From: Nemertoderma westbladi
Lineage: Eukaryota; Animalia; Xenacoelomorpha
Length of the DNA: 62,337 nucleotides
Assembly: GCA_032718475.1 (NCBI GenBank)
Contig: JAUCBJ010005100.1
Location: 1 to 62,337, forward strand
Reading direction: 5' to 3'
Position numbers and translations under genes: made by a program. The notes beneath the pieces were generated by a model. The model had not been told where the DNA came from. It did not search any database and was given only the letters and a program-made list of their open reading frames with translations. This document shows positions 12,156-43,301 of this stretch, piece after piece. Position 1 is the first letter of the stretch; every line of letters begins with the position of its first letter.

Positions 12156-15100
12156 ATGAGTGACACACCACATTCGACTCGACACCCACCTACCGACTAT
12201 GACTCGTGCGACCCGGACAGATCGACAGTAGACGAACCGAGAAGGAGAACCCGAGATTCCACAAATGTCACACCGTGTGCGTCGCCGGTACCCCGAACGG
12301 AAATACGGGAAGCCGCAATGCGAGGCGACGGCAGGATTGAGTATTTCCTTACAGTCCCGCAGACCAGGTCACGGGAACCAGACATGGTAAGCTTGGCGGG
12401 AAGCCAAGAAAATGTCATTAGAAGTATAGGAGGACACATGGCCTAGATTACTCGAAACCTCGGAGAAGGTTTTCGCGTTTTACGCGTGTTAACCGCCCCG
12501 ATGTCGAGATACGAGTTCTACACCTTACAGGTAAGGATAGAGAGTAGGGTACATGCCTCCGTAGATAAACTTAAAGGTTTACACGAACTTGCAGAGTTGC
12601 GTGGCGACAACTTTACTCAGGTAAAGATAATAGATAAGTTGGTAAGTGCGAGGGAAAGCCTTATCCAGTTTAAGTCAGTAATAAGATTGGCTCAACAGGA
12701 GCAGTTCGACCAACTGCTAGGTGAGTCAGTTTCTGACACATTGTTACAACCCGAAGAGGAAGAAGAACTATACTGCCTGGACGGGAGGTTAGAGACGCTC
12801 ACCAATTTTCTTCGTAGAAACGGCGTACCGATCGAAGAACCGGAAATCGAACCGCGAGGGACGACGGAAGTTCTTACTACGGAAGGCTTGCGAGCCTACC
12901 AAAATCCACCACTGGATAGATCGTTCGTTAGTGTGTGGAGCGACGTTGGCGACGTTAGTAGGACAACGTCTGTAATTACTCGACAATAACAGAAAGTTGC
13001 ACGCCGACAACAAGTCGTCGAGGAAGAAGCGCAATGGCAGATGGCACAGATCGCCATCGCGGGAGAGAAACAGCAAAGAGAGGACGAGGCAAGGATTGCG
13101 CAACTCAAAGCGCAAGCAGAATTCGAAGCCTTAGAACTGAGAAGACTGGAGGAAGATTTGGCACAAGAAGCTGCAGCCGACGAATTAGCACGAGTTGCGA
13201 CAGTAAACGCAGCGGAGTTAGCTCGGAAGAAAGCGGCATCTGACGCACGCGCCAAGTTGGAAGTGAGACAAATTAACGCACGATTGGCTATACAAGAAGC
13301 AGAGTTAGCGGCACAACAACAAGTAGCAGATCGACGCGAAACGGAGATGCAACTACAGTTCGAACTAAATCGTAGATCACGCGAGGCAGCGAACGCGCAA
13401 GCGGACTTCGAAATCGACGCGAGAGATAGATCTATAAGATCGCGAGCTGGACACGACTTGTCTGCCCTGGATCGCATGGAAGCTCGATATCGCAGGATAC
13501 AGAAGTGAATCGAGGAAGGAAGTGTGGGAGCGATAGATCGAGGAGAGGAGTTCGTCGAGGATTACTGCAAACGTTTTCCACAAGTGATTCCTATGCTGAA
13601 ACCTACAACTCCGATAAAACCGGTCTTTGTTACGAAACCTAAAGAAATAATACCTGTGCGCTCGGCGCAAGGTAACAGGTTTGTTGTGATGGAAATACCA
13701 CAACCTAGGGCAACTTCATCGCCAATTTTAGCAGGTAATGTAAATAGTCCACCTACAGTTAGTCATAGTCTACCTTTAGGAAGAGAGGAACCTGCGTTTA
13801 TGACAATTAAACAGGTAAGTAAGCTGTTAGCAGTTAAACCTGTGACGTGCTGTGCGAACCCAGTTATTTATAGACCGACTACGAAACCCGACTGTTTTAT
13901 TCAACCTTTGACACAATGTTCGACGCGACCTACGACTTCGTGGAAGGCTTGCGAGCCTACCGAACAACAGAGGAGGATGGATGTGGGTAGTACCCACGGG
14001 ATCGAACAATGTTTAACGAGCCCTACGACTTCGTGGAAGGCTTGCGAGCCTACCGAACGACGGAGAACCGTAGATTCTAGACCTCAACGTACTCGACAAA
14101 AGGTAATACGCCGGACGCGAACCCACCGACCACCTTATCCGGATGATAGCGACTCATCAAGCGACTCGGAGTCGACAGAACGGAAAATATTCCGTACTGG
14201 AGAGGCAGCAGCGGCAGCGGATTACAAATGGGAGGAAGGATCGACGAATCCATACATCGACAATCCTTCACACGAGAAACACCTTTGCGGAAACCCACGT
14301 TGCAACCAGTGGAAGCGATCAGCAGCAACAGACTCGCCGAAATGATGCGACCTGTAACGGACCGACTAGCTCAACTCGAAGAACGACTCGAAGCACAACC
14401 GTCGGATCGATCGTGAACCAGCGTGGAGTTAGAACAACCTAGACAACATCGACCACCAAGGAGAGAACAGGAGACTAGACAGACTCTGACCCATCGAGAA
14501 GAAGATCCCGTTAATATTTCCTACCGACAAACAACGCGCGGAAGGGAATGAATGGACAACGCAACCAAACAAGGATGCGGACAGTTAGATTTAGTTAGCG
14601 AGATTGCGAAGTTCGCGGCTAGACACGGATTACCGGCATAAAAACCGACGAAGTTCTCTGGCAATGTGAAACACTGGCGTACACTGGTAGACTACGTAGA
14701 GTCCCAGATCGCTAAGTGTGCTTTCACCTCGACGGAGAAGTTTAATTACTTGCTCCAAGTCCTGTCTGGTGAGCCGAAACGATTAGCGGAAACCTTCATT
14801 GGTGTTCCAGATGCCTTTGAGTTGGCGTACGACCGTCTATATTCGATTTACGGCGGCAACGTCGCCATGGCTAAATCCATTATCGAAGACCTCTGCAGAG
14901 GAGGCAGTATTTTGAAACCGATCGATCTTCTGCGACTCGTGGACGAAATCAAGAACGCTATAGGGACTTTACGGTCCATTGGACAACTCGAATACGCTAA
15001 CGCACCGACAGTTCTCATTCGAATAATCGGTAGACTTCATCATCGACTACGACGAGAATGGCGATGCATCGAGTAGCAGCGTGAAGAAGCCGGCGGGCTA

Positions 15101-15540
15101 TTGAAACTCACCGACGTCTACCAACTGATTTCGCGGGAGACCGTAATTGAGACTCGATCCAACTATACTGATCACCATATAGCGGCAGAAGGAATAGCTA
15201 TTGCTGCGCCGAATCGGACCAAACCATTTCCGACGAACGCAAAAGCCCTGACTTATGCCACCCCAACTGAAACTTCTAAAGTTCTGACGCCTATCGGCAC
15301 CAAGCAGCCACGACAACAGTTGCCGGCAGACTTTGCGGGATGCTCATATTGCGAAAAGAATGGCAGAAACCATAGCGGACATAAAGTCGTGGATGTCGCT
15401 CATTCAGGGAGTTGGGAATTGAAGAGAGGAGACTCCAAATTCGATCTTTGGATTCTTGTTAGAGATGTACGAAGCCAGGATACGTCCGGAAGGATTGCCC
15501 GAGCGACGATACATGTCCTCTATGTGGACGTAACCATGTC
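12156..15540 (+). pseudogene. gag: Element B gag (coiled coil, capsid-like domain, CCHC knuckles), disrupted
   Basis: ORF pieces 12156, 12486, 13041, 13524, 14666 and 15101 are collinear with D gag. The knuckles (CSYC..H..C, CRRC..G, CPLCGRNH) are spread across frameshifts. Confidence 0.8.
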
Positions 15541-17007
15541 GCAGGAAAAACGGTCATTAAATATTATGAGAGATACCATTCGCCAGACCGCGAATGGCCA
15601 CTACGAGGTTGGCATGTTGTGGCGCAATGGAAAACCTAAGCTCGTTAACAACTACCCGCTTGCTTTGAGGCGACTCAAATCAATAAGGCAGCGATTGTTG
15701 CGTGATGGGACGGCCCATATGCAATACAATGCGCAACTTCAGACGTATCTCCAAAAGGGATATGCCGTTAGGATGTTAAATCCCGAGGTAACCACAGATC
15801 AGACATATTACCTGCCACACCATTTTGTTCGACACCCGGACAAACCTGGCAAGGTGCGTGTAGTCAACGACTGCGCTGCGCTTTACCAAGGGATGTCTAT
15901 GAACAGCGATCTGATGTACGTGCCGAATATGAATAATTACCTCATGGGAGTCCTAATGCATTTTAGACAACGCAAAGTGGCTTTCACCTGTGACGTAGAG
16001 GCCATGTTTCACCAGGTTAAGGCTTTGAAGCGGGTCAGGGACTGCTTGAGGTTTCTTTGATATCTGGATGGAAATTTAGAACTTCCGCCAGAAACTTACC
16101 AAATGCAGGTAAGAGTTTTCGGAACCAGGGACAGCCCCAACTGCACCATGTATGCCTTAAAGCAGACAGCATTAGACAGACAAGACTAATTTGACCCAGA
16201 AGTAGCTCGGACAGTGGAACGAGATTTCTACGTGGATGACGGCCTCAAGAGTTGTGACACTCTGGAGTGCGCTACGACCGTAGCACACCAACTCCAGGAT
16301 TGTCTCGCTGAGGGCAGATTCCGCCTTACGAAGTTCGCTTCCAACGAACCCGAACTAGTGAACTCATTTGACCCAACTGATCGCAGTGGAGGAGATTTAG
16401 ACTTAGACCTAGTACCTCTACCTACGACCAAAGTATTAGGACTTAGTTGGGACCCTAACACCGACAATTTTAGGGTACGTGTAAGGTCCAACAACCAGAC
16501 TAGACCTCTCACTAAGAGGACTTGCTTATCGACCATGAGTCGATTGTATGACCCATTGTGTTTCATTAGTCCAGTGATCCTACATGCTAGGATCATACTC
16601 CGCAGCATTTGGCAAGCCGGACTGGAATGGGACGATGCCATCCCAGAAAAGTTCGCTGAGCAATGGAGGGACTGGGAAGCCCAACTGACGTTCCTACAAG
16701 ACTATACCATACCAAGGGTATACTTTCCTTTGCAGACCACCTTTCCTGCCGATTTAGAGCTTCACAGCTTTAGTGATGCTAGCAAGGATGGATTGGGGGT
16801 TACTTTATACCTTAGACGACAAGTGACATCGGACAGCTACGATGTGTCTCTCGTTACTTCTAGGGGTAGAACAATGCCGTTGAAGTATATGACTGTACCT
16901 CGTGGAGAGCTGCAAGCCGGGACAATATCCACCGATATTGTCAGTCTAGTTCAACGCGAGCTGGAGGCTAACTTGAATGTCACATATTGGACGGATGCGA
17001 CGTTGGT
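15535..17007 (+). pseudogene. pol: Element B pol remnant (RT plus RNase H); protease and most of the integrase deleted
   Basis: Reads GHYEVGMLW..YYLPHH..FYVDDG..KVLGLSW..TKR..YDPL..W D..HSFSDAS..YWTDATLV, then switches abruptly to LTR sequence. It has internal stops at ~16058 and ~16186. Confidence 0.9.
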
Positions 17008-17049
17008 AACCCAAACCCCTAACCGAGAGAGGCCAAACCCGTGGAGGTT

Positions 17050-17468
17050 AGGGGCCAAACCCCTAACCGAGAGAGAACACAAGGAGTGAAGGGAAACACT
17101 CCAAAGGGTGCCAACAGGGATATTAGCCAATGGGGGGAAGGCATCGGCTAGGTAATGTAATACGGCCAAACCGTGCAATATATATTACCAGTTGACTGCA
17201 TCAGTTATCTCAGTTATCAGTTAGTCAGATCAGTTAGGGTGGAGCGGCAACATCTATTACTGTCCACTACCGCCACCACATCATTCAATCAGTGTTTACC
17301 GGTATATCAGTTATCATCAGTTTAACCGTGCTTGCATTACTCATTTTATTATACTTATACTTATGAACTCCAGAACTTTCAACTTAACTGACCCTTTTCA
17401 TACACACGGCGGGGACGCGTAAATAGACAAACCCAACGGATAAATCGGGATCCGTAGATCCCGTCACA
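17050..17468 (+). repeat. 5' LTR of A (5'-truncated)
   Basis: Matches ~23728-24146 with about five substitutions by eye. A TATA-like AATATATATTA at ~17177 is followed by TCAGTT initiator-like motifs. Confidence 0.92.
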
Positions 17469-17559
17469 GTAATAGATTTCCAGCTGCCCGAAACTGAACT
17501 CTGAACTGAAGTAATAGATTCCAACAGCCCGAACTGACTGCTAGCCACCAAGAGAAAGG

Positions 17560-20500
17560 ATGAGTCGAGAAGAGAAGACGACACCGCCGCGGACCCCGGG
17601 CGACGATCTAACGATCCGTGAGGCCGCGACGCAACGATACGGACCCACGACACCGGTCGATGCTACGTCGACCAGGTCGACGCCGGTTGACGCCACGTCG
17701 ATAACGAGCAACGGTCGGGAACCAAGATGTGGGGGGTCGTCTACGACGAGAGAGCGAGTCGAGTAGAGGAGAGAGTGAGACGGGAGAGGAGAGAGACGAG
17801 TCGACACAGGGCGGCGGTCGATATGCCGATGTCGCCGGCCAGCCACAGGCCGAGGGCGACGAACGGCCCACCAGAACGGCAACGGTGGAGCCGATGGTAC
17901 GACGTCGGACCCGGAGGGAGAGAGGAGTGCGGTACACTTACAGTACGTACAGCAACCGTACGGGCGAGGGGGGTAGTAGTAGTACGTTAGGAAATGTTGG
18001 TATTAATAGTACCGTAGTAGATAACCCTAATCCCTTTATTACAGGAAATATTTTACCCGGTAATTCAAATTCAAATAATAATATTAATTCAAATATTCAG
18101 AATAATTCAAATAATTCGAATAATAATTTAAATTTTGAAAATAATAACAACTCTAATTTAAATAATTTAAATAATAATCCCGTTTCAAATTCTAATAATT
18201 TAATTGATTTAACAAATAATATTGGGAATGGTGCTATTAATATGAGCGTGTCAGACGTGTATAGCCCGGCAGACGGCGGCCTGGTAGGCCACGTAGTTAG
18301 TGGGCAGGAGGTGGCGGGGTTGAGACAACCCGACGGCGGCCTGGTAGGCCACGTAGTTGGTAGGCAGGAGGTAGCGGGGTTGAGCCAACCCGAGGTGGGC
18401 CTGGTAGGCCTCGCAGTAGTAGAGAGAGAGGCGGGGGTGAATAGACCCAGCCGTAGTAGAGATAGTGTGTCGACTAGAGAGGGGTGTAGAAGTGGAGTAA
18501 GAGATGGTGAAGTTAGATGTGGCGAGTGGGGGGGGGGGGGGGCTACAGGAGCCCTATCACGGAAGATTAGTGGCAAGAGAAGGGGGGTGGAAAATGTCCG
18601 ACAAGAGGGACGCAGAATTGTAGTAAGAGATAGTGAAGTTAGAAGTGGCGGGTGGGGGGGGGGGGGGCTACGGGCCCCCCACCACGAGAGATTAGTAGCG
18701 AGAGAGGGGGGGCAGAGAGTGTCCCACAGGCGTCGGCGGATAATGCGCGGGCCGAGTTAGGTAAACCGCAACACCCGGCGATGGAGAATAATAGGGGGAT
18801 TGCGAGTATCCCCAGCGGCGTGCGATCGAACAGAGAGAGACAGGTTGACGTCGCGAGAGGGCGGGCGACGAAACGTCGAGCCCAGTCAGAAGAGAGAAGA
18901 TTAGTAGAGTTTATTAGAGAGGTCGAAGATAGAAGAAGATTAGCAGAGTTTAGCCGAGAGGTCGAAGAGAACAGGAGTGAAGATAATAGAAGAGTCGTTG
19001 CTAGGGGCAACCGGAGAGCGAGGACGGATAGCGAGCCGTCGATAGTAGAGATGGAGTTAGGGAGTCAGTGGGGTCGAACTTCGGGAGATTGCCGTCGCCC
19101 CGGAGAAATGCACCGCACGCCAAGAGAGTGGTACAGGACGTACCGGTACGAAGAAGAGAACAGGAGAGGGGATCGAGGGGAAGCTTCCCGACGGGATGTA
19201 GCTGCCGATCGAGAGTACGGTAGTCGCGGGGAGATTCGAGATTCGCGAAGAATAAACTTCGGTTCGGAAGGGCACATGCAGACTGCAGGACATACTGTAG
19301 GCCTTACTGCACATACTATTATAGGCCATGCTGGGAGAGATAGAGTAGGCGATAGGGTAGCGCGAACGATGGGATTAAACCCGGAAGTCGCGGAGTACAT
19401 ACCGGTAGGTAGGCGAGAGGTAGGTAGGCCTATATCGGTACAGCAGCATGACTATAATACACAGGGACATAACATATATCCAGGGGAGGGGAGAGTTATT
19501 GTAGATAGATGTATGGGCCCCAATATATTAACATCAACCCCAGTACCAAACATACCGGTGGGGGGGGGGGGGGACAGGGTGACATTCCCCCATTACAATA
19601 TCAACAATATACCCCAATAGGAGCAAGAACATCGAACCCCTTGGACGAGAACAGGTCGTGCGACACGGAAATATGGAGGGGGCCGTTACCCCCAATGATA
19701 TATCCGACGCAACAAATAAAATCAACAGATAGGACGGACGGACCGCACCCAATAGGAGAGTCTGTACAACATCCATCGAACCCATTGGAAGCGCAAGCGA
19801 TGGGAATGGCCACATTAATCGATGCATTAAAGACCAGGATCGAGTTACCACCAGTCGAGCCATTTAAATTCGACGGAAGTAGGCCGGAAGAATACCTGCA
19901 GTTTCGGCGCATGTACAGCAACGAGATATTAAGTAAGAACTTGACGCAGGCGGAGTGCCTAAAATATCTGCAAGTATATACAGGAGGCCCAGCATACGAC
20001 ATCGTGAGGCAATACCAGGGCATCGAGGGCGGCTTCACGACAGCATGGCGGGCGTTAGATAGGGAGTACGGGCACCCAGCCAAGATCATCCGGCAAACCC
20101 TGAGAGGCATAACATCGGGTGGCCTACAGGATAATCCCGTTAGCATAAAGACCTTTGCGAATAAGGTCGAGAAGGCGTTAATCGTACTGAAGACGCTAGA
20201 CGCACCATACGAACTCAACGCGTCTAACAACATCACCACGATAGCGCAGGCACTGCCGATCTGGCTGCGGAGAAAGTGGAGGAAGATCGCCTTCTCCACT
20301 CGAGAGAAGAAAGGTGCGGAACCGGGCCTAGAAGAAATGTCGAGCTTCCTAAACTATGAAGCCGAATTAATTACAGACCCAGTCTATAGTGAGGATAGTT
20401 TGGGGAAGGCACCAAAGACCGAATACAACAGGCCTGGACCCGAACATAATCCGACAGACCCATTCTCGGGAGTGGGACAGTCACTACCACATGCGGCCAC

Positions 20501-22043
20501 ACAGGGGACTGCTAGTCCACAGTTAGCTGGTAGTAGGGCCACACCGTGGCGGGCACAGAAAGAAAATAACACCATAAATAAACATAATCCCAATGTACCC
20601 AGTAGGCCGAATACAGACAACCAAAACACTAAATCGATACATATAAACCTACGCGCGATACGTGAGGGACTATACAGGGAACGCTATAATCCAGGATTCG
20701 AATGTCAATTACACCGGGACGGAACCCATAAGACCAGGAGTTGTAAGCACTGGCAAGCGTTGCCCAAACAAGATCGTGTAGCCTACACAGACGCAAACGG
20801 ACTATGTCATCGATGTGTGGTAGAAGGACACAGACCCGGAGAGTGTAGAGAAACAGCAGCAAGAGAGGAGGAGACTGGAGGCCAAACAGCAGCTAGAAGC
20901 ACTATAGAAGAGGAGAAGAAGAGAAAAGTACTACTCGGGGTAGTACCAGTGAAGATATCAGGAGAGGGCGGTCGATCAGTAACGACATTAATGCTGGTCG
21001 ACAGCGGAGCAGCCTTCACGCTGGTGGAGAACTGGGTGGCCGAAGAGATAGGGCTAAAGACGAGGCCGAACAGAATGGCGGTAACTACCGTCTCGAGTAA
21101 AGATGAGGTCCTGGAGACGAGGACGGGGCGGTGCAGGATAGCAGCGATTGCACCGGGATGCGACTATGGGGCGACGATCGACCCCATCCACATCATCGAA
21201 TCGATAAACATCAACGCCAGGCGACCAACCAACGTTGAGGTCGAGCAGTACAGATTCCTGGAGGGTATCGATTTCTCAATACCAAAGGTGGACGTTAGGA
21301 AGGTGTCCATTATAGTAGGAATGGACTGCCCGACGGCCCATGAGAGAATGAAGACGGTCTTCGGCGAAGACAGGCAGCGGGACCCGACGGCGATCCTCAC
21401 GCCGTTCGGATGGACGCTTAGCGGCCCAGTTAAAACCAACATCCCATGCAGTGTGACAGAGACATCTGGGTGCATGATACCAGGCACCGAAGACGCAGAG
21501 GAAGTAGAGGAGAAACAAGAGATAGTAGAGCCAAATAGGGAGGTGACGGTAAGAAAGTTGGCAGAGGAGAGTAGGTTTCCCAGCAAGCATCGGTATGGAG
21601 ATGGACCGGAGCGGACGGCGAGGTGTCCGGAGGACAACACTCCGGGGGAGTGCCCGGAGGAGTGTCGGAAGGAGTGTCTAAAGGAGTGTCCAGAGGAATG
21701 TCCGGAAGAGACGCAGGTCCGGTTTGGAGGCATACCGACAAGGGGGAAGTCGAGAAGGAAGGCAGGATGGAAAGGGATAGGACTATTATTCTACCTTCTG
21801 TTCTGCCTGTTCTTTCACTTTCTATTCATTCTGCCGGCGGGAGACAACAAGGAGGGAGGTGGCATTTTGATGCCAGGAGATGAGCTAGTTAAGAAGGCGG
21901 CGGAGAGACCCGATTTCAGGGTGGCAGAAGAGGGAGAACCAATTCCTGGTGAGATGGAATTGGCGAAGAGAGTGCGGCGAATCCTACAGGACCTACAAGA
22001 GCAGCAGTGGGAGAGTGCCTGTTGGAAGAATCGCCCTAGTTAG
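17560..22043 (+). CDS. gag: Element A Gag-protease polyprotein, with frame breaks mostly at poly-G runs
   Basis: An N-rich and R/G/E-rich N-terminus is followed by LPPVEPFKFDG..YLQF (BEL capsid-like), the knuckles CQLHRDGTHKTRSC and CHRCVVEGHRPGEC, the protease LVDSGA, and AILTPFGWTLSGP. Confidence 0.85.
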
Positions 22044-22254
22044 GAGATTTAGTCGTCCAATATTTTGGACTGAGGGGGGTGGGAATGAGGGCGAGACGCC
22101 CTTCCCACAAAAATAATTATTTAATTTAAATAAACAATAATAAATAATTAAATAATTAAAAATAATAGTTAGTAGAAGTAAGAAGTAGTAAGGTAGAAGT
22201 ATAGTAGGTTAGAAGGCGGCAGAGTATAGGGAGTGTGGTATAAACATACCACGG

Positions 22255-23000
22255 GAGTAGAGGGTACGTAGTACCGGGAGTTAAGTTAGAAGGCGGCGGG
22301 GTAAGGGAGTGTGGCATATTGTCATGCCACGAGTAGTAGTAGGGGGGTCGTGGGCACCGGAAGCGCCACGTAGAAAGTAGCAGTGGTAGAGAGGTTGTGG
22401 GCACCGGAAGCGCCACGTAGAAAGTAGTAAGAGAGGGGTTATGGGCACCGGAAGCGCCACGTAGAAAGTAGTACGAGAGAGTGGTTGTGGGCACCGGAAG
22501 CGCCACGTAGAAAGTAGTAGCAGAGAGTGGTTGTGGGCACCGCAAGCGCCACGTAGATAGAGGTGGTGAAAGAGTGGTTGTGGGCACCGCAAGCGCCACG
22601 TAGAGAGTAGAAAGGGGTAGACTAAGTATAGTTAGAGTTAGTAGAGAGTTAGAGGGTTTTAGTTAAAGTAGTAGTAGAGTGGTTGTGGGCATCGTTAGCG
22701 CCACGTAGATGGAGGTAGAGTTAGTAAGAGGGTACGTAGTACCGGTTGTGGTTGTGGGCACCGTTAGCGCCACGTAGATGGAGGTAGAGTTAGTAAGAGG
22801 GTATGTAGTACCGGTTGTGGTTGTGGGCACCGTTAGCGCCACATAGATGGAGGTAGAGTTAGTAAGAGGGTACGTAGTACCGGTTGTGGTTGTGGGCACC
22901 GTTAGCGCCACGTAGATAGAGGCAGAGTTAGTAAGAGGTTTTTAGTTAGAAGTAGTAGTAGAATGGTTGTGGGCACCACAAGCGCCACGTAGATGGAGGA
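22255..23000 (+). repeat. Internal tandem array of A (~46-bp, then 69-bp units; GTGGGCACC..AGCGCCAC core x11)
   Basis: Eleven cores counted between 22350 and 22992. The 69-bp units also carry GGTACGTAGTACC. Confidence 0.9.
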
Positions 23001-23588
23001 TTTTAGTCAGAGTTAGAAAAGAGTTAGTAGACTTAGTAGTAGAGTTAGAGAGTTCTAGTTAGAGTTAGTAGAAAGTTAGAGGCTTTTAGTTAGAGCTAAA
23101 AGTAGTAAGAGTTAGCAGAGAGTAGAGTTAGTAGTTAGTAGAGTTAGGAGTTAGTTAGAGTTAGAGAAGCTAGATAGTTAGCAAGTTAGACCTTAGATAA
23201 GGTAGATAGTATGATAGCACAGGGGTAGCATTAGAGGTCAGGACCTTAGAGAGTGGCAGGGAGTAGAGAGGAGATAGTGAAAGGAGCTGTTGGCGAGAGA
23301 GAAGTGTGCGATTCAGGTGTGGGGAGAGGGTAAGAGCGAGTTGAGTTAGAGAGCGGAGTTAGAGTGGTAAGAGTGCCGGGGAAACAAAAATTGTGTGAGA
23401 GAAGCGCACGATCGGCCCGACACGAGGCGCCAGAGGGTAGTGACATCATACCCATAGGGAGCGGCCTGGAAAGCCGACTCCAAGAAAATAGATCCACCCC
23501 ACACCCGATAATAGATCGAGTTCCAGCGGAATTGTAGCGCACTTTAGTTGGATGCTATCTTCTTACCGGGAAGATAGCATGGGGGGGG

Positions 23589-24146
23589 TGTTAGCTTATC
23601 CAATCCCGCTAACCAAACCCCATAGAGTGAGCCGTTAAGCCGTTAAGCAATATTGGGAGCACGAGGTTGATTACCCAACCTTGTGTCACCCCAATCAAGT
23701 GGGAAGGAGAAACACACAACGAGGGTCAGGGGCCAAACCCCTAACCGAGAGAGAACACAAGGAGTGAAGGGAAACACTCCAAAGGGTGCCAACAGTGATA
23801 TTAGCCAATGGGGGGAAGGCATCGGCTAGGTAATGTAATACGGCCAAACTGTGCAATATATATTACCAGTTGACTGCATCAGTTATCTCAGTTATCAGTT
23901 AGTCAGATCAGTTAGGGTGGAGCGGCAACATCTATTACCGTCCACTACCGCCACCACATCATTCAATCAGTATTTACCGGTATATCAGTTATCATCAGTT
24001 TAACCGTGCTTGCATTACTCATTTTATTATACTTATACTTATGAACTCCAGAACTCTCAACTTAACTGACCCTTTTCATACACACGGCGGGGACGCGTAA
24101 ATAGACAAACCCAACGGATAAATCGGGATCCGTAGATCCCGTCACA
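23589..24146 (+). repeat. 3' LTR of A (558 bp, TG...CA)
   Basis: Follows the PPT GGGGGGGG (23581-23588), begins TGTTAG and ends GTCACA. The host IN tail (VQRLVLLEETRNETGDY) resumes immediately after it. Confidence 0.92.
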
Positions 24147-24972
24147 CTGTACAACGTCTCGTACTCCTTGAGGAGACTAGAAACGAGACAGGAGACTACA
24201 AATCTCCACCCAATATTAGTAAATAGAGATGTGGGACCCTTGATGGCCGCCACATAGACTTACCGTATTTTAGTAATTTAGTATTTTGTATTACTGTATG
24301 TGCATTTGTAATCCTCTTCACTGTAGATAGAGACAGCGGTGGAATTCCATTGTCTTTATATGTGAACATGGAGGGTAGTAGTACCCTTATGTATCACATA
24401 GGAGTGAGCGGGATTGTGTGTACAGTAGGAATGGAATTCCACTTGGAACCCACAAGTGGGACAATTTTTCAAAAATTATTAGACAAATCCATTTAGTTGG
24501 ATTTAAATTTAAGAAAAATGATTCTCCAGTGAATGCGAATTCTAGAATACAGCTAGATAAAAATTAAAATTGGGGAGGACAAGAGCGGATGGAAGGCTTG
24601 CGAGCCTACCGATAAATTTTTTTTTGGGAAAAGAATACTGGCCTTGTTCTACGTAGTCGTGTCTACTATTATTTAGACCGAATTAATTCTCGACTGCATT
24701 ATTTCTTTGGGAATGTAGTTTGGGAAATTAAAAGGTGATTATTTTAGACTCGCGGCTAGTTTACCCGGATTTCGTTTTTTATCGGCACAATTTTTGGATT
24801 AGGAGCCAGTGCGAAATCACGTGAACCCGAAGTCATTAGGCAAATGGGTTGGGGTTTTAGAGCAAAGTTGAGCCAAAAGCCGACTAACTCTAAGTCACCT
24901 CACATCTAACCTCTATTTTGTGCTTCATCTAGTAGAAACGTAACAATATGTAACCATATATAGGCGTATACA

Positions 24973-27900
24973 ATGGCGGAGAAGATTTATAAGGAGTTAC
25001 GACAGGGGTTTACACAGGAACAGGAGCACCAGGCGCCGTTTAATCGTTATGGAGCTAAAAACTTTAGTGTGTTTGGGTGGAGAGTATGGCTAGGAGTACA
25101 GCCAAGCTCGCTAAATCCAAGGCGGACCCGAATGTTACAAAACAGCGATTGGACGCTTATAACAAAAGAGCGGAGGAATTACACGCGGAGTTTAATGCAT
25201 TGTATCCCTACGATGCGTTATGCAACGCCAGTGACATTTGCGAGGATCCAGACACGGAGATACGCCGATTATATCATACGCTGCAATATTTGATGGTGAA
25301 CGAACCCTTACCTGCAGCTAGGGACGAATTCGAAGGAATGCATCTTTATAGACGCGCTCGAGGAGCGGATCCAGAGACAAAGGACGCATTCTCCATATAC
25401 AAACTGTTTTACAAATGTGGAGCATGTATGCGCAAGCAAGACAACGCGATTCCTATGCGATTGAACTCGGAAAACCCCGAGCCGATATTTGTGCGATGCT
25501 CATACCACCAAAGTCTGCGTTACCAAGAAGGCGGATACCCTTTGACGAATCCATACCATTCGTTCAAGATGAGTGGACCGAATGCAGGTGAGATCGTTAT
25601 TTACGAACCCAAATTATTCGAACCAGACGTCTACAATATGGTAGTGGATGAGTCTAATAAGTCGACGCAAGAGAAACGGGAAGCTTTGAGCCTCTACAGG
25701 GCCTACAAGGCATACGAGAAAGGCGAGATCGAGGAGTTCGGCGGAAGGCTCGCGAGCCTACCATTTTACTGGATATCCCACGATCAAACCGTACCTAAGG
25801 AGATGACACCCGAGCTCTTCGATAGTATCACCTTTACTCAGCGTTTGTCGCAGAGACTACAGATACCTCATGTCGAGATGACGCGAGAACCTCAGCCCCA
25901 TCCTACTAAAGCGATAGTACCGGTCGCGAGACCAACCAGCTTTCCTATTAGTATACCGGCCCGAGAGGAGACAACTTATGAGATTCCTATAGTTGAACAC
26001 CCGGAGATCATTTCGAACCGGGATTTCCTCCCATCGGTTACCTTTGGTGATGTGTTAGAGTCAGCCGAGTTGCGTAGAACGATAGTACAGAAAATCGTAC
26101 GCAACGTGCCTCCACATATTACGGACTTTAAGGAAGTGAATCGCGCGGGGACGGATATCGCACCTTGTATCTTGCGAGGATATCTAACGAAAATGATTCG
26201 ATTATGTATTGGAGTCGGAACGTTTGAGACCGACACCGATATTGCGACCAATTGGACCAGTAAACCTATTAGTTTCGATGATGAAAAGTCAATAGGGAGA
26301 ATTTGGAACCCTACCGACGATTTACTCTACGATTGGGACACGACTAGCCGATCTCTGAAGGAGAATGGTTATATGTTTTACGATAAAGAAGGCCATGGAA
26401 GAGGATCGATTGCCTACGCCATACGTGGATACTAGACCATTGTTGCTTTGGGCTATTGAGCAAGGATATTTTAGGGAGTATAACACGCTAAAAACTGGAA
26501 CGGGTTATATCTCATACCTAATGTTTAGTTGGGATTATAAGGAGAGTAAGAGGAGCAAATACACGGACGTATACGGAGAGGGAGATACCCCCGGCATAAA
26601 CGAGTTCGAGTTACAGCTAAAGTGGCGAGGTTGCGTGTGTACTGGGCGATTACCTCACCTCCACGAATAATCTTGCAATACTATTTGGCGATAGAATCTT
26701 CGGTAAACGTTTGCTTCATCGCCGATGTAGTGTCTAGGACTCTAAAGTGACATCCGTTATGTCTCGGTGAAGGACATACCTTTTACGATGGAGGAAGGAT
26801 GCATACTGATGTATTCCGCCGATTTCTCCAACCCTTTTATAACACCAATGCGCACTGCGAAGTTTTCACGCGAGCGGGACTTAGCGTTTTCAGGGACGTC
26901 TATCTCACTCACGCAGGAAGCCTAGTCGACAGACCGTCGATGTTAACGTTAGTACCCTACGATGGGGAACGCAACGCGGAATTCAAAGGCCCGGAAGGAT
27001 CCTGGAAGGCTCGCAAGCCTACCACCCATCATGACGATGTGGATCTGACCGAGTTTGCGATAATAGACGAACCGTTGTGGCAACTCATAGAGATAGAGGA
27101 GAACCTTCCGAGGAAGACGCGAACTAAGATACGCGAGTTGGAGAAAAGCGATGCCATGGTTTGTGTACAACCTACGGATACGAACATACCGACTGACCCG
27201 GATGATGAGAATTATCACGTGGACAGTAGCTCTCGCCCCATCGGAGATCTTATCTATGAGCGAGTTTGCTACCCTGCCAACACTATTTGTAGCAGATGCG
27301 GGGCAACTGGCCACCACGCAAAGAAATGCGGAGCGAAACATATATCTCTACCGGACTTAGTATGTTACTGGTGCGGGGATCAACGTTCGCACACTTTCTA
27401 CACCTGCTGGCGTTTCGTGGCGCAGTGCACGTATTGTAATATTAAAGGTCATAGGGCATCCGAATGTCAACTTAGGGACATCCCCTATGAGCATATGTCA
27501 GTTAAAATCATTCGACAGCTATTCAACCATTGGGAGAATCTAGCAGACGAGCATGTATCGACACAGCGACGCCATTTCCCTATGAGAGCACACTTGGGAT
27601 TTTGGGCCGTAAACCCTCTCATAATGTCGAAAGAAGGATACGTGTCAGCTATGCCTCAATACGATGCACTCTTGGAGGTGCTGGATATATTGCCATTGGA
27701 TAGCGGATTTAAGGTTGTGCGGGACTACTTTCTGCAGGTACACCCCGACAACAAGAACACTTGGAACTTTCAAACTGTGGTGAACAAGATTACCGCAGGG
27801 GAATTCGACAAATTGCGAGTCGAACAGCAGAATCGAGGAGCCTGGCATTCGATAGCTTGGGCATACCGGAGCGAATTTTATCACAAATGTGTAACCTCGT

Positions 27901-28442
27901 GTATTCTAGACGAGACGGACGTTTTGCGTGAGACTGGCTTCAAGGCCACGCCGTTAGCCGAAAAGACGCGTCACCCACAGGATGATCCACAACTTCGTAT
28001 ACTTAGAGCCCAGAAGGCCGGACAAGAGATAAAGAAGGTAGTAAATGTCGCTGAGAGGACGACATCGAAGTCGCAAATCCGGATGACTCGAGGCACGGTT
28101 TCCATCGCTAGAGAACCGCGCGGAGGGACAGGATTCGCTTTGCCAGAACCCATTAGAATTCAGACGACGTCAGAGAGCGAGGTGTCTGCGGACGGAACAG
28201 TCCCACCCTTTCGACTTCCTCCCAGCATTGTGGAGACTCGATCCGATGTTAAGCCAACAATTGGAATCGGACGAGGATTTAGAGGACTGAGCGCACGACG
28301 GATGTGCGAAACTCCCGTCGTCCCCTTTCCTAGCATTTTGGAACCACCGACAGCTCGACACCGAAGTCCGAGTCCAGTTCGATCCCGACCACCACCCAAT
28401 CGTATTAGAGGGCGTAGACTAACCTGTTCGACCAAGGAATAG
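24973..28442 (+). pseudogene. Element B extra 3' ORF: Cys/His N-domain, DEDDy-exonuclease-like domain, 3 CCHC knuckles and a conserved C-domain (frameshifted)
   Basis: Pieces 24973, 25077, 26365 and 26799 align end to end with D 43302-45804 (GMHLYRR.RG.D.ET..FS.YKLFYKCG.CM.KQD; VDT..LLLWA; LQYYL..ES; KPIGDLIYER-like; GFWAV.P; TWNF). Confidence 0.8.
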
Positions 28443-29227
28443 GAGAGCAAGATGAAGAAAGGAAGGCTTGCGAGCCTACCGATTGGATATTTATATTTGA
28501 ATATTATATTTGGATGTTATATTGGATATTTTATTTGGATATTTATATTTGATATTTATATTTTGGAATTTATATTGAACATTGGTTTTGGAGGAGCGAG
28601 ATAGAGAATGAAGGCTTGCGAGCCTACTGTTAGCAATTAGTGCTCAGGAGAAGATATCTAGACCAGTAGGACGAACTATTGAGCTCGTCAGGAGGACACT
28701 TAAAGACTTATTTGAAAGTTATTAGCGCATTATGTTTATTCTATATTTAAGATTGATTTAATTTGGTAAATTTATTATGTATATTTGCAATATATGAAGA
28801 ATTATTGAAAGCTTGAAATTATTTGTTTTGATTTGTTCTGATTTGTTTAATTTGCTTATCTTGATAACCGAAAGCTTTTTTTTGTATTTTATGCACTAAA
28901 GTTAATTGGTAAATTTGTATTTTGTATGTATAATAGATTGTATTTACACCGTACCTGCAATATTAAGTATGCAATAATTAGGTAGTGATTATTTTATATT
29001 TTAGGCCCCACCAGTAGATTTAGAAGTATTTTGTAAATAGTTTATATTTCGATTGGTGAAAACAGTCTTACTTACTGTTTTCATGGAGCGGTGATGGATT
29101 ATTTCACTATAAGATAGCATTTGTAGTTTAACGTAAAAACTTTCTAAAATCCGACGCATTTTGATTAAGTTACAGTAATGCAATATGCCTATTCATATTG
29201 GTACACATAAAACCCGTAGGTAATCTC

Positions 29228-33541: not shown

Positions 33542-36500
33542 ATGAGTGTCTCAGAGAAGGAGGCACTAGAGGACAGCTATGAGACGGCGGCTGGACCGCC
33601 GACTGACGATAGCGTTAATATTACTGTTGACGACAATGCCGACTATGACGACGCAGCGAGCGACGCTGACGTAAGTGAACAGGAGGACGAGACAGTAACT
33701 AGTGAGGAAGAGCAAGCAGAGGTAATAGTATTAGGATCCCCTACCACTACTGTAAGGAAGGATTGTACAGCAGCCCGACCGGAGGTGAGTGATAGGGAAA
33801 GTAGTGTAGCAGAAGCGAGAGCCCGGAGCGCGGTTGCCAGACCTGTGGGTATGGTAAGTGCCGTGGTCCCACCGGCTAAAAGGAGTACCCGTTGTTCCCG
33901 AAATAATCCTTCAAGTCCACCGAGTGTGAGTCAGGAAAGCGAGAGAGAACTAGACACCGCGATAAAGGAGAAACTTCGCGCGCATGCCGGACATATAACT
34001 CGGACGGCGGACAAGGTAAGGAAGATGTTAGCCGACTCAGCAAACATCGGAAGGGAAGGGTTAGTAGAGATTAGAAAAGGATACAATTCAGCATTATTCA
34101 AGCAGATGGAGGAGCTTGCAGTCCTAGCGAAGAGAGCAGTGGAGTCTCAGTCAAGCGACGTGGCGACGAGAATTTACGACAGGGTTTTAGCAGCCTTGTT
34201 GGAGCACCACACATTATCAGAGCGATTTCGACGAGTTAGGACGGAGAACTGGTTGCTATGAGCATCACAAGCGCAGGCGACTCAGATGAGAGGCGCAGAG
34301 TTGAGAAACTTAGTGGAGCGGGAAGAGACGCAGGATAAGGAAGAGCGCAGGTATCAGAGGGAAGTTACCAGCTGGCTGATGCAGAGTGGAGTGGTGGTAC
34401 CGGGCCAGGTGCTGCCGACGACGGACAATATCCAACAGAGAAGGTTAACTCCACCCGACGACGCATCTAGAGAAGGTGGCGATTCCCAGGTTAGTCATGC
34501 GCGAGGGAAGGTTATATGTGCTAGATCCCTTGTTTCTCACAACTCGGTGGAGGAGAGAAGACACCGACTGAACGAACAACAGGCGGAAATTTTGCGTGCA
34601 TCGGAAGAAAAGAAGGAAGCCGAGTGGGAACAGGAGTGCACACGGAAGTTAGACGCAAAGTTGCGAGAGTTGGAAGAAATAAGTAAGCGTGAGCAAGCGG
34701 AACGCGAACGGAAGGAACGCGAACTCCAACTTGAACGCAAACAGAATGAACGCGAACTCCAACTTGAACGTGAACAGAAGGAACGCGAACGGAAGGAACG
34801 CGAACTCGAGATTGAGAAGGAGCGAAGGGCATTGTATGAAGAGAAGGCGCGTGTGGAAGAAGAGAGTGCAGCGAGACGAGCGAGGGAAGAAGAAGAACGT
34901 AAACTGGCACAGTTGGAAAGTGCGAGACTAAACTTAGAGAGCGAAGAACGGACCAGGAAGGCGAATGAAATCGCCGAGAAGGGGATGCGAATGATCGAAG
35001 AATGTGGGGCGAGTGTAGGTACTGAGTTGCGAGAACTGTTCGCACTACAGAAGGCCGAACAGGAAGCGAGAACTCCGACTATACGCGAGTCGACGACGAC
35101 CAGAATTCCTATACCCGGTCCAGCTATTACGAGTACTCGGATCGCTAAACCGTTCTCTACATATCGCACACCAGTTGGTATTAGTGCTTCTACTACTAGG
35201 ATCGGCATGCTGCATTGCAGCTGCATTTTTAAGAATGCTGTGCCGGCTTGTCAACAAAATTGCACCGCCACAACTCCCTATCACCCATGACATTTGCTAG
35301 ATCATCCGCATCTTTAAGGCCAGTGTCCTTTAAGATGCGTCTCAAGAAAGTCATGGGCTGTCCACCATGCTTATTCACTCCATGAGGCTGCCAAAGTACA
35401 AGATTATGCACTGGCTGGTCCTCATGGCGAAAGCAATGTCCTGCAAAGCGGAGGCGATTTTGTTCTAGTGTCAAGCTTGGGGGAACCAATGAGAAACCTC
35501 CAATGTTATATAGTGTCTGGTTGGAGATGTGTGCATTGTACTTGACACAATGTACCCGGCGTAGCATTCTTGTGAATGTGCCATCCAGAGATTTGGTGTC
35601 CTCAGCAGTTAGAGCCCAGCATGGACTCCCGTAGAGGAGTACTGGAACTACTGCTGCTCTAAATAATCGGACCTTAAGTTTCCGATTAATTCTAGGTGAC
35701 TTCCAAATCCTGGAAAGCCTATTCAAGGCTGCCCATGCCTTTCCCTTACGTATTCGAAGGTCCTCACCTGACTTCCGGATCCATGATCCCAGGTAACAGA
35801 AGTCGTCCACATGCTCAAGCATACCATCCTTTGAGCTTATGCTCATCCGATCAGAGACTTGCTGAGGACTTTCAAAGTTAACTGTCAGAATTTTGTCATT
35901 AGTGCTTCACCCATCGCGCAAGATCCATGTCATCAGGACACTGCACCACTACATACCGAACGTGACAACGAAGAGTTTAGAGGAGAAACTCCGACGGGCC
36001 GAGTATTGCGCGAACCGCGGGCAAACCCGCGGGTTTGGAATACGCGGACGGAGCGCCGACCCAGTTCGACGGAGAACTTCCGGGTTAAACCGGAAGAGGG
36101 ATCATATGAGAGACAGCGGATTACTCAGATAGAGCCAACAATACAACAGAACCCTAGCCAGGAATTTATTACGAGGGATGAGTTAAGTGCTAGTTTAGCA
36201 CAAGCTATATCGCCGCACATCCAACCTATAATGGACATGCTTAGTAACCTACAGTTAAAGGAAGCAGCCCAGGTAAGAAGTAATTCTAATCCTAGCAGGC
36301 CTGAGTTATTTTAAGTCCAACCTAGTCAACGAGTACACATATCGGAGGCAACTATACCACATAGACCTCAGGTAAGAATGCCTGTCCCTACGATACATAA
36401 TCCCAACTTCGAGAATTCGGCGGAAAGATTTATACAGGATGCTTGAGTCAGGGCTTCGGCGCGTAAACCAACGCGAGCGCTGAGAACTGATACTGACTCA

Positions 36501-40600: not shown

Positions 40601-42524
40601 GGATGCAGAAGTCAAAGTGGAGAAAGTCTCTAAGTCAAAGTCGAAAGCCAAACTCCAGTTATTGGAGCGGCCTGAAGAGTCATTGGAGCGGCCTGAAGAG
40701 TCATTGGAGCGGCCCGGAGACCTGTCAGACCTACAGACTTACGTGACTACTAGGTCAGGAAGGGTAAGTTATGACATAAAACCACCCTTACAGACTACAC
40801 AAGAGTCACAATTGGTAAGTGACGGACAGAAAATGACCGACACAATGGAGCCTTTGGTTTCCAAACCTGCGGGTTTGGATTCGAAACTTCCATTAACTAG
40901 CGGACGACCGTCGCTGGCATTAGAGCCATGTAGTATTTATGACAAATTACTAAATTCGTCTGCCTCTTGGCTGACAATTTGTAAAAGAACTGCATGGTTA
41001 AGCCGATACGTTTCGTACCTTTGTTTAAAACATTCGAAACATTTAGGAGAACAAATGAGCGCTAATAGTGAGCGAATTCAGAAATTGAAACAACCTCTGA
41101 CAGAGGATGAGATTGATCAAGCGGAATTAAAGCATTTGAAACATTATCAAATGTGTGCCTTCCCCAAAGAATTCTATCTATTATCGGCTCAATGACCAGT
41201 TCTCTACAAACCCCTTAGAAAATGGAGTCCATTAATCCATAAGGGTTTGATTTGTCATAGATCAAGAATCCAGACTGTCGACATAAACTCACAGTTTAGG
41301 TTCCCAGTGATAATCCCTAGTCACCCAATAGAATTGCAAAGAGCGATTCTATGGGATATACACAAGAGGTTGCATCACGCGGGAAAGTTACACTGTTTGT
41401 CGGCAGAGAGACAGCGATTCATTCTATTGCAGCCAAGCAGGGCAGTGGGTACCATGTACGACGCCTGTCTGGTTTGCAAGAGAGTGAACGCCAGAGTATT
41501 GGAACAGGAGATGGCTGAACTCCCAGAAGCGAGAGTGCAGGCATATGACCCACCCTTTACAAATACAGGGGTAGATTGTTTTGGTCCGATTGAGGCAAAG
41601 AGTGGACGGCTGACCCATAAACGATGGGGCCTGCTACTGATATGCATGGCCAGTAGAGCCATACATATCGAGCGTGTGGCAGACAAGTCGACCAAATCTC
41701 TGCTCCTGGCCTTAAAGAGATTTATGGCCAGGAGAGGACTAGTAAAGGGGTTTTACTACGACAAGGGTACAAACTTTGTCAGAGGGAATAGCGAGTTAAA
41801 CGCGGCTCACAAACCAGCGCAAAATAGAGAAATTTCTGCAGCACTTTTGCCGCAAAGAGTAGAGTGGAGATTCAACACTCCAGAAAGTCCTTGGATAGGA
41901 GGAAGTTGGGAGTGTTTGGTTCGTTCCATAAAGCAGGCCATTGCTAAGACATTGCCTGTAAACAAACAACTTACCGACGACGAGCTGGTCACAGCTTTCA
42001 TCGAAATCGAGCATACGCTAAACTCGAGGCCGATAGCTATGTTGCCAGACGGTGTTGCATTAACGCCGAATCATTTGCTAATGCAGAGTCCAGCATTTCT
42101 TGTGCCGGCATCAGAACCCATTAGTGCCGACCTATACAGTCGTAAGAGCTTGAAAATAACTCAATTTGTTGCGTACACATTCTGGGAATATTGGCGGGAA
42201 TACTATCTTCCCACCATATCCACCAGATCAAAGTGGTACAAAACGGTTCGGAGCCTCCAAAGAGGAGACTACGTATTGATAACCGAACCAATTGTCAAGA
42301 GAAAATACTGGGAGACTGGAGTTATCTTGCACATACACCCAGACGTGCAAAATATAGTGCACACAGTCACTGTGAAAATTAGGTGCAAGTGTCCGCACCC
42401 AATGAAGTGTAAAACTAATGGTTTACACACCTTGGACCGACCGGTCCAAGATATCGGGTTATTAGAGGAGACACGCATCGAGACAGGAGATTATAATTTG
42501 TCTCCTGCCTCAAACAAAAATTAG
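37635..42524 (+). pseudogene. pol: Element D pol (PR, RT, RNase H, IN) with several stops and frameshifts
   Basis: MLDTAS protease; YYLPHH and FYMDD RT; LFSDTS and YWTDA RNase H; H..LHHAG..C..C, TGVDCFGP, DKGTNF, GGSWECLV, LNSRP and LTPNHLL integrase. Confidence 0.93.
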
Positions 42525-43301
42525 TGTTAGACGCAACTCACTTCGTGTGCATTCCTCGTATGCAAATACTAGGAAATGCACAGGAGCGGGTTTGCGGTGA
42601 TTTGCGTTGAGAATTTGTCTGGTGGGTATCAAAAACAAAATTTTATTTCAAAATTTTTCGAAAATTAAAAAATTTTAAAAATTAGAAGTGAACCCAAGAC
42701 AATTCCAAACGCTGTGTATAGACGCGTTTTAGAATTCGTCTATAGAGATACAGTAATTTGAGAAAAGTCGTGAAGCCTTGAAAATAGCATTTAGAAACCA
42801 TGGTGACGGCTATATTACATAGGAGTGTAAATTGAGTTTAGCAACTTCCACAGATTGGTGCCAACAGTACAACAACCAAGGTGCTAAAGGTTAGTAGCAC
42901 CAGAGGCGTACACGGACCCAACTCAGTAGTTTGCAATGAAGTGAGATGTTCGATTATCAAACCTGTGGGTTTGGTATTGTAGAGCGTTGAGACTATTGTC
43001 GTTTCTAACTACTGTAGTTTAGTACGAGTAATGGGAGTAGTTTGGGCATCAAAAAGTGAGTTGGTCACGGCCAGTTTATCTCCAAAGTTTTGCGCTATGC
43101 ATGGGAATAGGTTAGAGGATAGTTAGGAATGAGACGGGATCTAGAGAGTCGAACCTGAACTGCTGGAAGGCAGCTGGGGGGAGGGGGGGGGGGGTTCGGG
43201 AGGTCTGTCCTTCGGCGACATCTAACTGATTTACCCACAGTGTAATTAGCTACGTAACGGAACCTATTGGGATATATATATATGTATATACGCGGCTTAT
43301 A

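Follow-up and report, generated by a model that had tools for sequence, protein, structure and literature searches.

Why should a retrotransposon carry the same short palindrome eight times, scattered through coding and non-coding sequence? This question is raised by element B, which lies in the 62,337-nt stretch of Nemertoderma westbladi DNA that was analysed as a whole (the window; Table 1). The palindrome, GGAAGGCTYGCRAGCCTACC, has seven exact matches in B and an eighth copy with two mismatches, the asymmetric form being on the + strand in every case, and 100 dinucleotide shuffles yielded no match even with three mismatches allowed; the eight same-orientation copies reported by the first-pass annotation are thus confirmed. 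The last copy had been described as trimmed, which is correct for this sequence, although part of the B family has an extra G at 28609 and hence a less trimmed palindrome 8. There was no copy in six other regions counted, nested element C1 included, or in the 46 kb of the 62-kb window outside the two B parts; the palindrome also had no match in viral contigs, and no Rfam family was matched at the gathering score.

Table 1. Position of the palindromes and associated features of elements B, C1, C2 and D in the window.
Feature	Coordinates	Strand	Description
B gag-pol	12157..17008	+	Broken by stops and frameshifts
B palindrome 1	12881..12900	+	Loop TGCG; 5′ part of gag
B palindrome 2	13942..13961	+	Loop TGCG; gag linker, 700 nt upstream of DUF1759 block
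B palindrome 3	14035..14054	+	Loop TGCG; second unit of 93-nt duplication
C1 (BEL/Pao type), nested in B	17009..24147	+	No B motif
C-terminal tail of B pol	24148..24225	+	Resembles end of D pol
B palindrome 4	24591..24610	+	Loop TGCG; pol/extra-ORF spacer (non-coding), ahead of predicted acceptor
Predicted branch point (CTAAC), pyrimidine tract and AG acceptor	24906..24932	+	Sequence pattern only
B extra ORF	24973..28442	+	Four frame pieces
B palindrome 5	25743..25762	+	Loop CGCG; extra-ORF linker, 166 nt past conserved N-terminal block
B palindrome 6	27004..27023	+	Loop CGCA; extra-ORF linker between two conserved blocks
B palindrome 7	28461..28480	+	Loop TGCG; 19 nt downstream of extra-ORF stop
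B palindrome 8	28609..28628	+	Loop TGCG, two mismatches; 3′ non-coding region
D palindrome 1	33838..33854	+	Degenerate, loop TGTG; 5′ gag
D palindrome 2	36022..36038	+	Loop CGCG; 680 nt upstream of DUF1759 block; matches B 2/3
D palindrome 3	38637..38653	+	Loop CGTG; protease-RT linker, region missing in B
D palindrome 4	40862..40878	+	Loop TGCG; linker past RNase H region, region missing in B
D palindrome 5	42958..42974	+	Loop TGTG; pol/extra-ORF spacer; matches B 4
D extra ORF	43301..45804	+	Broken; three CCHC knuckles
D palindrome 6	44068..44084	+	Loop CGCG; extra-ORF linker; matches B 5 (+169 vs +166)
D palindrome 7	44894..44910	+	Loop CGCG; extra-ORF linker; matches B 6
D palindrome 8	47535..47551	+	Loop TGCG; 3′ non-coding, followed by AT-rich repeats like B 7
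C2 extra ORF piece	52950..54050	-	Distant homologue of knuckle plus helical region
C2 tandem array	54770..55182	-	12 GGTAC-GTA-GTACC hairpin units; between pol and C2 extra ORF

On its sequence, B is a retrotransposon of the BEL/Pao type, now broken, that carries an orphan ORF (the extra ORF) downstream of pol. A DUF1759 domain (14642–15073) is followed by RT and Peptidase_A17 (RNase H region) up to 17008, its BEL/Pao-type domains, DUF1759 and Peptidase_A17, being 46–61 % identical to those of element D; this copy is devoid of protease and of most of the integrase. Belpaoviridae are flanked by terminal repeats (LTRs) of 0.2–1.2 kb, with a PBS and PPT; no matching pair of terminal repeats was found for B or D, both interrupted by other elements. 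The four frame pieces of the extra ORF probably constitute one gene, coding for a cysteine-rich N-terminal block with conserved CxxC and CxxH residues, a middle block, three CCHC-type knuckles (at about 27288–27467), a helical block and a low-complexity tail. Upstream of the extra ORF, both B and D contain ACATCTAAC plus AG, which in B is predicted to be the acceptor for a spliced extra-ORF mRNA; the B acceptor passes a 70 % pyrimidine threshold, whereas that of D (CTAAC at 43222, AG at 43240), with a weaker pyrimidine tract, falls below it.

The extra ORFs of B and D both contain three knuckles (Pfam zf-CCHC, 22.2 bits; cut-off 20.8), and the stretch from the knuckles through the helical block is free of interruptions at 27090–27890 in B and 44995–45801 in D. 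Their best PDB match was the Lin28 knuckle pair, which is weak (E 0.098), other PDB matches being worse, and AlphaFold2 models built from two-sequence alignments reached a mean pLDDT of only 41.7 and 38.5. No env match to this third ORF was found in Pfam. Outside the window, no homologue appeared among 3,066 candidates, 3,746 longer candidates or 1.84 billion representatives, and in metagenome contigs none of 47 and none of 170 pattern matches was confirmed.

The five B copies located in coding sequence use all three codon phases. This agrees with the earlier observation, made from the peptides quoted there, that the motif is read in different frames, and supports a constraint on the nucleic acid; taking B and D together, 10 of the 16 sites lie within coding frames. 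The proposed fold also stands, with a predicted stem pair probability of at least 0.82 for six of the eight B sites in a 200-nt context, to which we add an A·A mismatch: the hairpin is AGGCU-loop-AGCCU with outer GG/CC pairs. Palindromes 2 and 3 had been attributed to local duplication, and they indeed occupy the first and second units of a 93-nt duplication; in another B copy, one contig lacks ca. 87 nt at palindrome 3. When both fall in one folded window their stem probability is 0, presumably because in such a fold 13942 and 14035 pair with each other and this abolishes their hairpins. Among 40 listed places, of the 2,521 at which B-family copies differ, none is within the motif, about 0.3 being expected by chance, which makes this absence uninformative.

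The first-pass annotation did not see the motif in elements A, C and D, which is true of the B palindrome; nevertheless, D has an equivalent of its own, CAAACC-YGYG-GGTTTGG, also in eight copies, and neither motif occurs outside the element it belongs to (B 8, D 8, and 0 in the other regions counted). The two elements are related (40–61 % protein identity), also in the extra ORF (38–58 % identity in four blocks), and share the BEL/Pao order of domains (capsid, NC, protease, RT, RNase H, integrase), D being fuller than B, with DUF1759, Peptidase_A17, Integrase_H2C2 (weak) and DUF5641 in more than 14 kb, insertions included. A weak Pfam match of the D gag N-terminus to AvrE (E 0.005, 14.5 bits vs. 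a cut-off of 24) was discarded as noise. Four of the eight D sites map within 60 nt of matching B positions (P 0.001–0.002, with the mapping tolerance and the anchors picked after the offsets had been seen), a test that D palindrome 8 failed, and site spacing is mostly 0.8–2.6 kb in both elements. Over 15 aligned sites, 89 % of the stem cells pair and five of the eight pairs change on both sides, three of these five being clean compensatory swaps between the families, which fit a symmetric DNA site equally well; in addition, both partners of a stem pair have changed in D palindrome 3, from A-T to G-C. Only B palindrome 6 departs from the YGYG loop, which the other 15 of the 16 sites share, and the second loop position is G in all 16. 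Since B and D are sisters, they do not represent independent cases.

Could the palindromes have arisen as micro-insertions, neutral or selfish, or as a side effect of repeated copying, and persist solely where protein linkers or non-coding DNA tolerate them? Identity does end sharply at the motif edges (0.13–0.40 in the flanks), and all B and D sites fall outside conserved protein blocks. Nevertheless, the longest flanking direct repeat is 0–3 nt at all 16 sites, within background, so that the insertion with TSDs that the first-pass annotation had named as contrary to its reading left no trace, and in the 62-kb window neither motif has spread beyond its family. Likewise, matching positions of B and D hold different sequences, all three codon phases are used with motif lengths not divisible by three, and among 32 listed contig pieces, the four that cover a B site are without a 20-nt gap. 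We thus consider this origin very improbable.

Whether the sites act as RNA or as DNA was examined through their departures from symmetry, which on the sense strand are G·U in 16 cases and C·A in one. The ratio is 11:1 with the common loop of B counted once, against a background share of 0.51–0.56, and 8 of 9 in the loops alone (P 0.02 at a share of 0.5, 0.07 at 0.6), in a test devised after the sites were seen and with one decayed copy per family. Family-wide differences do not have that skew (T>C 293, A>G 364; run X1). This strand-biased wobble favours a role as RNA and speaks against a function as double-stranded DNA, in which a dimer of the extra-ORF protein, or a host factor, would bind the palindromes and keep the element unsilenced or transcribed along its length. 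Also at odds with DNA sites are the A·A asymmetry of B, identical at its eight sites, the 3′ G of D, present at all eight without a fixed partner, and the usual preference of CCHC knuckles for single-stranded nucleic acid. DNA binding does, in turn, agree with the near-perfect dyads of 17–20 bp with a CpG-containing centre, with an even spacing that suits an effect on chromatin, and with the conserved CxxC/CxxH residues of the extra-ORF N-terminal block, and it needs no special pleading for sites present in both predicted RNAs.

There are also precedents for DNA sites. In the available sections of Bousios et al. (2010; PMC2829016), Sireviruses, plant Ty1/copia LTR retrotransposons in which an extra ORF follows pol, carry 8–32 copies of element-specific palindromes of ca. 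10–20 bp (RM boxes) with a shared CG-containing core, and some cluster upstream of the env-like extra ORF, as only the C arrays do here; their role is likewise putative. B and D resemble them in having an element-specific palindrome in at least eight copies, but the Sirevirus CGG-CCG core clusters in LTRs and linker DNA, while the YGYG sites are dispersed singly through coding linkers, and neither strand-biased wobble nor matched positions are reported in those sections. The target pattern of VANC21, family-specific motifs in one orientation, is exactly that seen here, and VANC is also a transposon-encoded accessory protein that co-evolves with many such motifs (according to the accessible part of Hosaka et al., 2017; PMC5735166). 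By the same account, VANDALs are DNA transposons whose motifs, 8–9 nt long and non-palindromic, spread through tandem repeats within non-coding sequence, and binding to dsDNA was shown. Tandem Repeats Finder listed no array that contains a B or D site, and it is the C arrays that would resemble the VANDAL motifs. No sequence link was found between VANC and the extra ORF. On balance, we regard a DNA role as rather unlikely, though the strongest of the alternatives.

The first-pass annotation had proposed packaging or dimerisation signals, or protein-binding sites. Its RNA component is favoured by the wobble, while packaging or dimerisation through Gag is less well supported because the extra-ORF mRNA, not expected to be packaged, would retain four of the eight B sites. 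In such a scheme nucleocapsid knuckles would bind the loop and two genomes of one family would join at multiple sites through the motif; self-complementarity holds for every YGYG loop if wobble is allowed, and pairing inside particles could account for the homogenised copies. Predicted duplex energies average −30.6 (B-B) and −28.2 (D-D) vs. −11.0 kcal/mol (B-D), the sense strand beating the antisense by 5–6 kcal/mol, but any palindrome has a strong self-duplex energy and these values are not independent support. Many equal palindromes would also pair intramolecularly, as suggested by the loss of the hairpins at 13942 and 14035 in the joint fold. The excerpts available for retroviruses describe a UGCG tetraloop, a known ligand of CCHC knuckles, in SL-C of RSV micro-psi (PMC5035970), and pseudopalindromic hairpins that convert to extended duplexes in HIV-1 (DIS) and MoMuLV (PMC7599994); B and D have a comparable loop and self-complementary hairpin by sequence and prediction. 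In those excerpts, specific binding of RSV Gag was not weakened when UGCG was changed to GAGA (PMC5035970), and the signals that Gag reads lie in the 5′ leader, as one copy or two, without being repeated along the genome (PMC5035970, PMC7599994). In B, the first site is 724 nt inside gag and there is none upstream, in 11547–12156. Gag also carries knuckles, and the loop alone does not name the binding partner. Signals of this kind seem to us an improbable explanation, more so than DNA sites.

Our preferred reading, to which we assign a probability of about 0.4, is that the B palindrome is one member of a set of family-specific motifs, a putative RNA stem-loop to which the zinc-knuckle protein of the same element's extra ORF would bind, in the manner of Rev or CERV. 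The protein would be translated from the spliced mRNA; its knuckles would grip the two loop guanines while a neighbouring domain reads the stem, so that each family's protein would coat only its own transcript. Its likeliest purpose would be to let the long unspliced RNA survive and leave the nucleus; in D, splice donors abound in this RNA (GGTAAG, 19 sense vs. 2 antisense). Sites within the extra-ORF mRNA would provide feedback. Selection and short-patch copying during reverse transcription may keep the copies alike.

The closest parallel is CERV of the C. elegans element Cer1, a novel LTR-retrotransposon accessory protein with a cysteine-rich region, made from a spliced mRNA and needed to export the unspliced genomic RNA (Sun et al., 2023; PMC10309623, accessible sections). 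Nonetheless, Cer1 is Gypsy/Ty3, the CERV cysteines form a C4-type loop and not three CCHC knuckles, HIV-1 Rev binds one structured region instead of eight scattered hairpins, and the word "stem-loop" is absent from that paper, which hence defines no RNA target (PMC10309623). The location of the sites speaks against export: the predicted B acceptor (24932) precedes four of the eight B sites, which would remain in the spliced mRNA, and that of D precedes three of the eight D sites. Rev-type response elements, by contrast, sit in an intron.

According to the ICTV profile, BEL/Pao replication is poorly understood and the only third gene is env-like, of unknown role (PMC8742986). As far as the consulted parts of the descriptions go, Belpaoviridae share with B and D the DUF1759, Peptidase_A17, DUF5641 and integrase zinc-binding domains in gag-pol order, and differ in that env-like gene, here replaced by a knuckle protein (PMC8742986; PMC3118150). 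B and D also exceed their 4.2–10 kb range, and repeated palindromes are absent from the profile (PMC8742986). The nearest database proteins are only 32–38 % identical to these elements, and D pol had no match in viral contigs. We found no prior description in the literature, a weak negative given that main texts only were searched and that the spelling BEL/Pao was poorly matched. An orphan accessory protein is thus paired with an obvious candidate target, and the two sister families provide a ready-made exchange of specificity, the protein and hairpin of B vs. those of D. It thereby becomes possible to test how an LTR retrotransposon distinguishes its own transcript or DNA from that of a relative, and how eight scattered sites change sequence jointly; if RNA binding is true, the pairs are candidate orthogonal RNA tags.

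The parallel motif of D, together with the knuckle ORF and hairpin arrays of C, points to a family-specific system and not to a one-off motif. More broadly, and somewhat more doubtfully than for B itself, a lineage of animal BEL/Pao elements may practise self-recognition at the RNA level, each family having an orphan triple-knuckle protein and its cognate hairpin at least eight times, even inside coding sequence, with the specificity of the protein and of all sites shifting jointly as families split; this would make a library of orthogonal pairs, an RNA counterpart of VANC. C was initially thought to be without an extra ORF, a notion overturned by the homology of the C2 piece (hhalign 95.5 %, E 1.5e-8, 23 % identity over 154 columns), and it is therefore no clean negative control. 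The knuckle ORF of this family is shorter, and tandem hairpin arrays, at 22263–22990 in C1, take the place of scattered palindromes. Since C2 contains this related ORF but no sense-strand YGYG hairpin with at least four pairs, the ORF does not require that type of motif. Both C1 and C2 have LTRs and a purine tract, the LTR copies of C1 being 98.6 % identical over 423 nt.

The palindrome GGAAGGCTYGCRAGCCTACC occurs in exact form at 12881, 13942, 14035, 24591, 25743, 27004 and 28461 of element B, and an eighth copy with two mismatches is situated at 28609, all eight in the same orientation, as the first-pass annotation had described; none of 100 dinucleotide-preserving shuffles contained any match with up to three mismatches. 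The claim that the motif is read in different frames was likewise borne out, with the five coding copies using all three codon phases, and identity between non-duplicated sites falls to 0.13–0.40 directly beyond the 20 nt. That annotation had not seen the motif in A, C or D, and in a count over eight regions of the window it was indeed present only in B (3 + 5), but a separate palindrome in the related element D had been missed. The B palindrome is a real, non-random feature, larger than first reported.

The palindrome of D, CAAACC-YGYG-GGTTTGG, was found by a dispersed-word search and has six exact sites plus two with two mismatches (0.03 expected), all restricted to D (8 in the same count). 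B and D are 46–61% identical in gag-pol blocks and 38–58% in the extra ORF downstream of pol. Four of the eight D sites map at most 60 nt from a B site, as would 7–8% of positions (P 0.001–0.002, with tolerance and anchors fixed after the offsets were seen); of the unmapped sites, two lie in pol regions absent from the B copy and two are too far from any anchor. The 16 sites all fall outside conserved protein blocks, an avoidance that is not significant for the four independent coding sites of B alone (P 0.13). The feature amounts to palindrome sets, each specific to its family and in part positionally conserved, in elements of BEL/Pao type that encode an orphan knuckle protein. Repeated element-specific palindromes (Sirevirus) and cognate accessory proteins (VANC, CERV) are already known; our literature search, weak on the family name and covering main texts, found no description of palindrome sets in BEL/Pao elements. 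The database proteins nearest to D pol are only 32–38% identical, indicating that this lineage is poorly sampled.

Features of elements B, D, C1 and C2, and offsets of palindromes to shared protein blocks
Feature	Position or offset	Strand	Remark
DUF1759 in B	14642-15073		domain match
C1, nested element inside B	17009-24147
C1 tandem arrays, between pol and extra-ORF position	22263-22990	+	4 GGTAC-GTA-GTACC units and 11 of a second unit
Acceptor-like sequence, B	24906-24932
B extra ORF, after pol	24973-28442		four frame pieces
Element D, relative of B	33540-47700
Acceptor-like sequence, D	43222-43240		pyrimidine tract under the threshold used
C2 knuckle ORF	52950-54300	-
C2 tandem array, between pol and knuckle ORF	54770-55182	-	12 GGTAC-GTA-GTACC units
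Offset to shared protein block	B -700/-607, D -680
Offset to shared protein block	B -576, D -531
Offset to shared protein block	B +166, D +169
Offset to shared protein blocks	B +47/-89, D +28/-101

Element B carries two domains that serve as markers for BEL/Pao retrotransposons, DUF1759 and Peptidase_A17. Stop codons and frameshifts interrupt this copy. Set against D, it is missing the protease and the greater part of the integrase region, and a search for a terminal repeat pair found none. The family is multi-copy: in three of the four runs, representing at most three samples, 19,092–36,261 contig pieces aligned to the 19.9-kb stretch that B and C1 make up together. The pieces of the extra ORF match D in order, suggesting a single gene; it contains three CCHC-type knuckles (Pfam zf-CCHC, 22.2 bits, cut-off 20.8), and no homologues were found outside the window. 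A tRNA-like stretch (29222–29301), with a B-box (GTTCGAATCC at 29282) and not called by ARAGORN, is possibly a SINE head in the 3′ region of B.

In a loop-centred alignment of 15 sites, excluding duplicate 14035, 89% of stem cells were paired and both sides had changed in five of eight pairs, with three clean between-family swaps (T-A/C-G once, G-C/A-T twice), these counts representing two families rather than 15 independent events; one D site has a private A-T to G-C double change. Of the 16 loops, 15 are YGYG, and all have G as the second base. Both strands of a palindrome have the same sequence, which makes its imperfections informative: within dyads, the sense strand showed 16 of G·U type and one of C·A type, or 11:1 with the common loop of B counted once (P 0.006, two-sided), the G·U share in chance dyads of B and D being 0.51–0.56. 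Differences among family copies were not skewed to C-to-T (T>C 293, A>G 364; run X1). This strand-biased wobble is only suggestive of RNA, because loops alone give 8/9 of G·U type (P 0.02 at a 0.5 share, 0.07 at 0.6). Hairpins were predicted with pair probabilities of at least 0.82, in 200-nt context, for six of eight sites in each element, and a seventh D site retains four of five predicted pairs. Zinc knuckles usually prefer single-stranded nucleic acid. In one RSV study, an NC knuckle contacts a UGCG tetraloop via its guanines, and altering the tetraloop left specific Gag binding unreduced (PMC5035970). Judged from sequence, the palindromes are candidate RNA hairpins that the extra-ORF protein would recognise, a reading to which we assign a probability of roughly 40%.

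The C family contains a shorter, distant relative of this ORF in C2 (hhalign 95.5%, E 1.5e-8), no dispersed YGYG hairpins having been found in C2, and tandem hairpin-like units in their place; a knuckle ORF thus accompanies a repeated hairpin-like motif of the family's own in all three families, in two layouts. C1 appears to have lost its knuckle ORF. The layout of the C arrays is like that of Sirevirus repeated motifs (PMC2829016) and VANC targets (PMC5735166), which keeps alive the reading of the B and D palindromes as DNA sites, a less probable one.

In B and D, ACATCTAAC, a pyrimidine-rich stretch and AG occur in this order 40–60 nt upstream of the extra ORF. If this acceptor is real, the ORF would be expressed like env, from a spliced mRNA predicted to retain four of the eight sites in B and three of the eight in D. 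Such retention would agree poorly with a genome-selective packaging signal and better with a protein that coats transcripts of its own family. Signals for packaging or dimerisation, one of the readings in the first-pass annotation, are rather unlikely as targets of Gag. Work on Cer1 describes an LTR retrotransposon using a novel spliced accessory protein, CERV, for export (PMC10309623). Donor-like GGTAAG words in D, many of them in gag-pol, number 19 sense versus 2 antisense (P 0.0002), and AATAAA in B 0 versus 9; we infer that these biases are what a long transcript exposed to processing would be expected to show, and they may reflect U1-based protection of such a transcript.

A micro-insertion with TSDs is contradicted by flanking direct repeats of 0–3 nt at 16/16 sites, within background, and by the lack of 20-nt presence/absence in contig pieces spanning B sites (four of 32 listed), in which 7–17% of letters differ and gap positions number five at most; we rate neutral insertion as very improbable. 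The 93-nt duplication that includes 13942 and 14035 appears to be polymorphic, since ca. 87 nt of the 13876–14006 interval are missing from one contig.

Across 11547–62337, retroelements are deeply nested, C1 inside B and both E and C2 inside D, and large deletions have removed internal parts of them. A 70-nt piece is 100% identical, in opposite orientation, between D (35191–35260) and C2 (57949–58018), and D 35190–35900 resembles a foreign insertion, with similarity to 4283–6123. An element at 47842–51784 (+) with long 21-nt tandem repeats (G/A/Q/S-rich peptide) breaks the 3′ end of D and is itself cut by C2; downstream of the repeats, a frame contains the reverse-transcriptase-like words QGDPL and YADD, which we take to be of non-LTR type, with no Pfam RT match at E 0.01. 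Finally, a fold-back array of 22–24-nt units and a 155-nt inverted repeat pair (1297–2215 and 3880–5740) are likely miniature DNA transposons.
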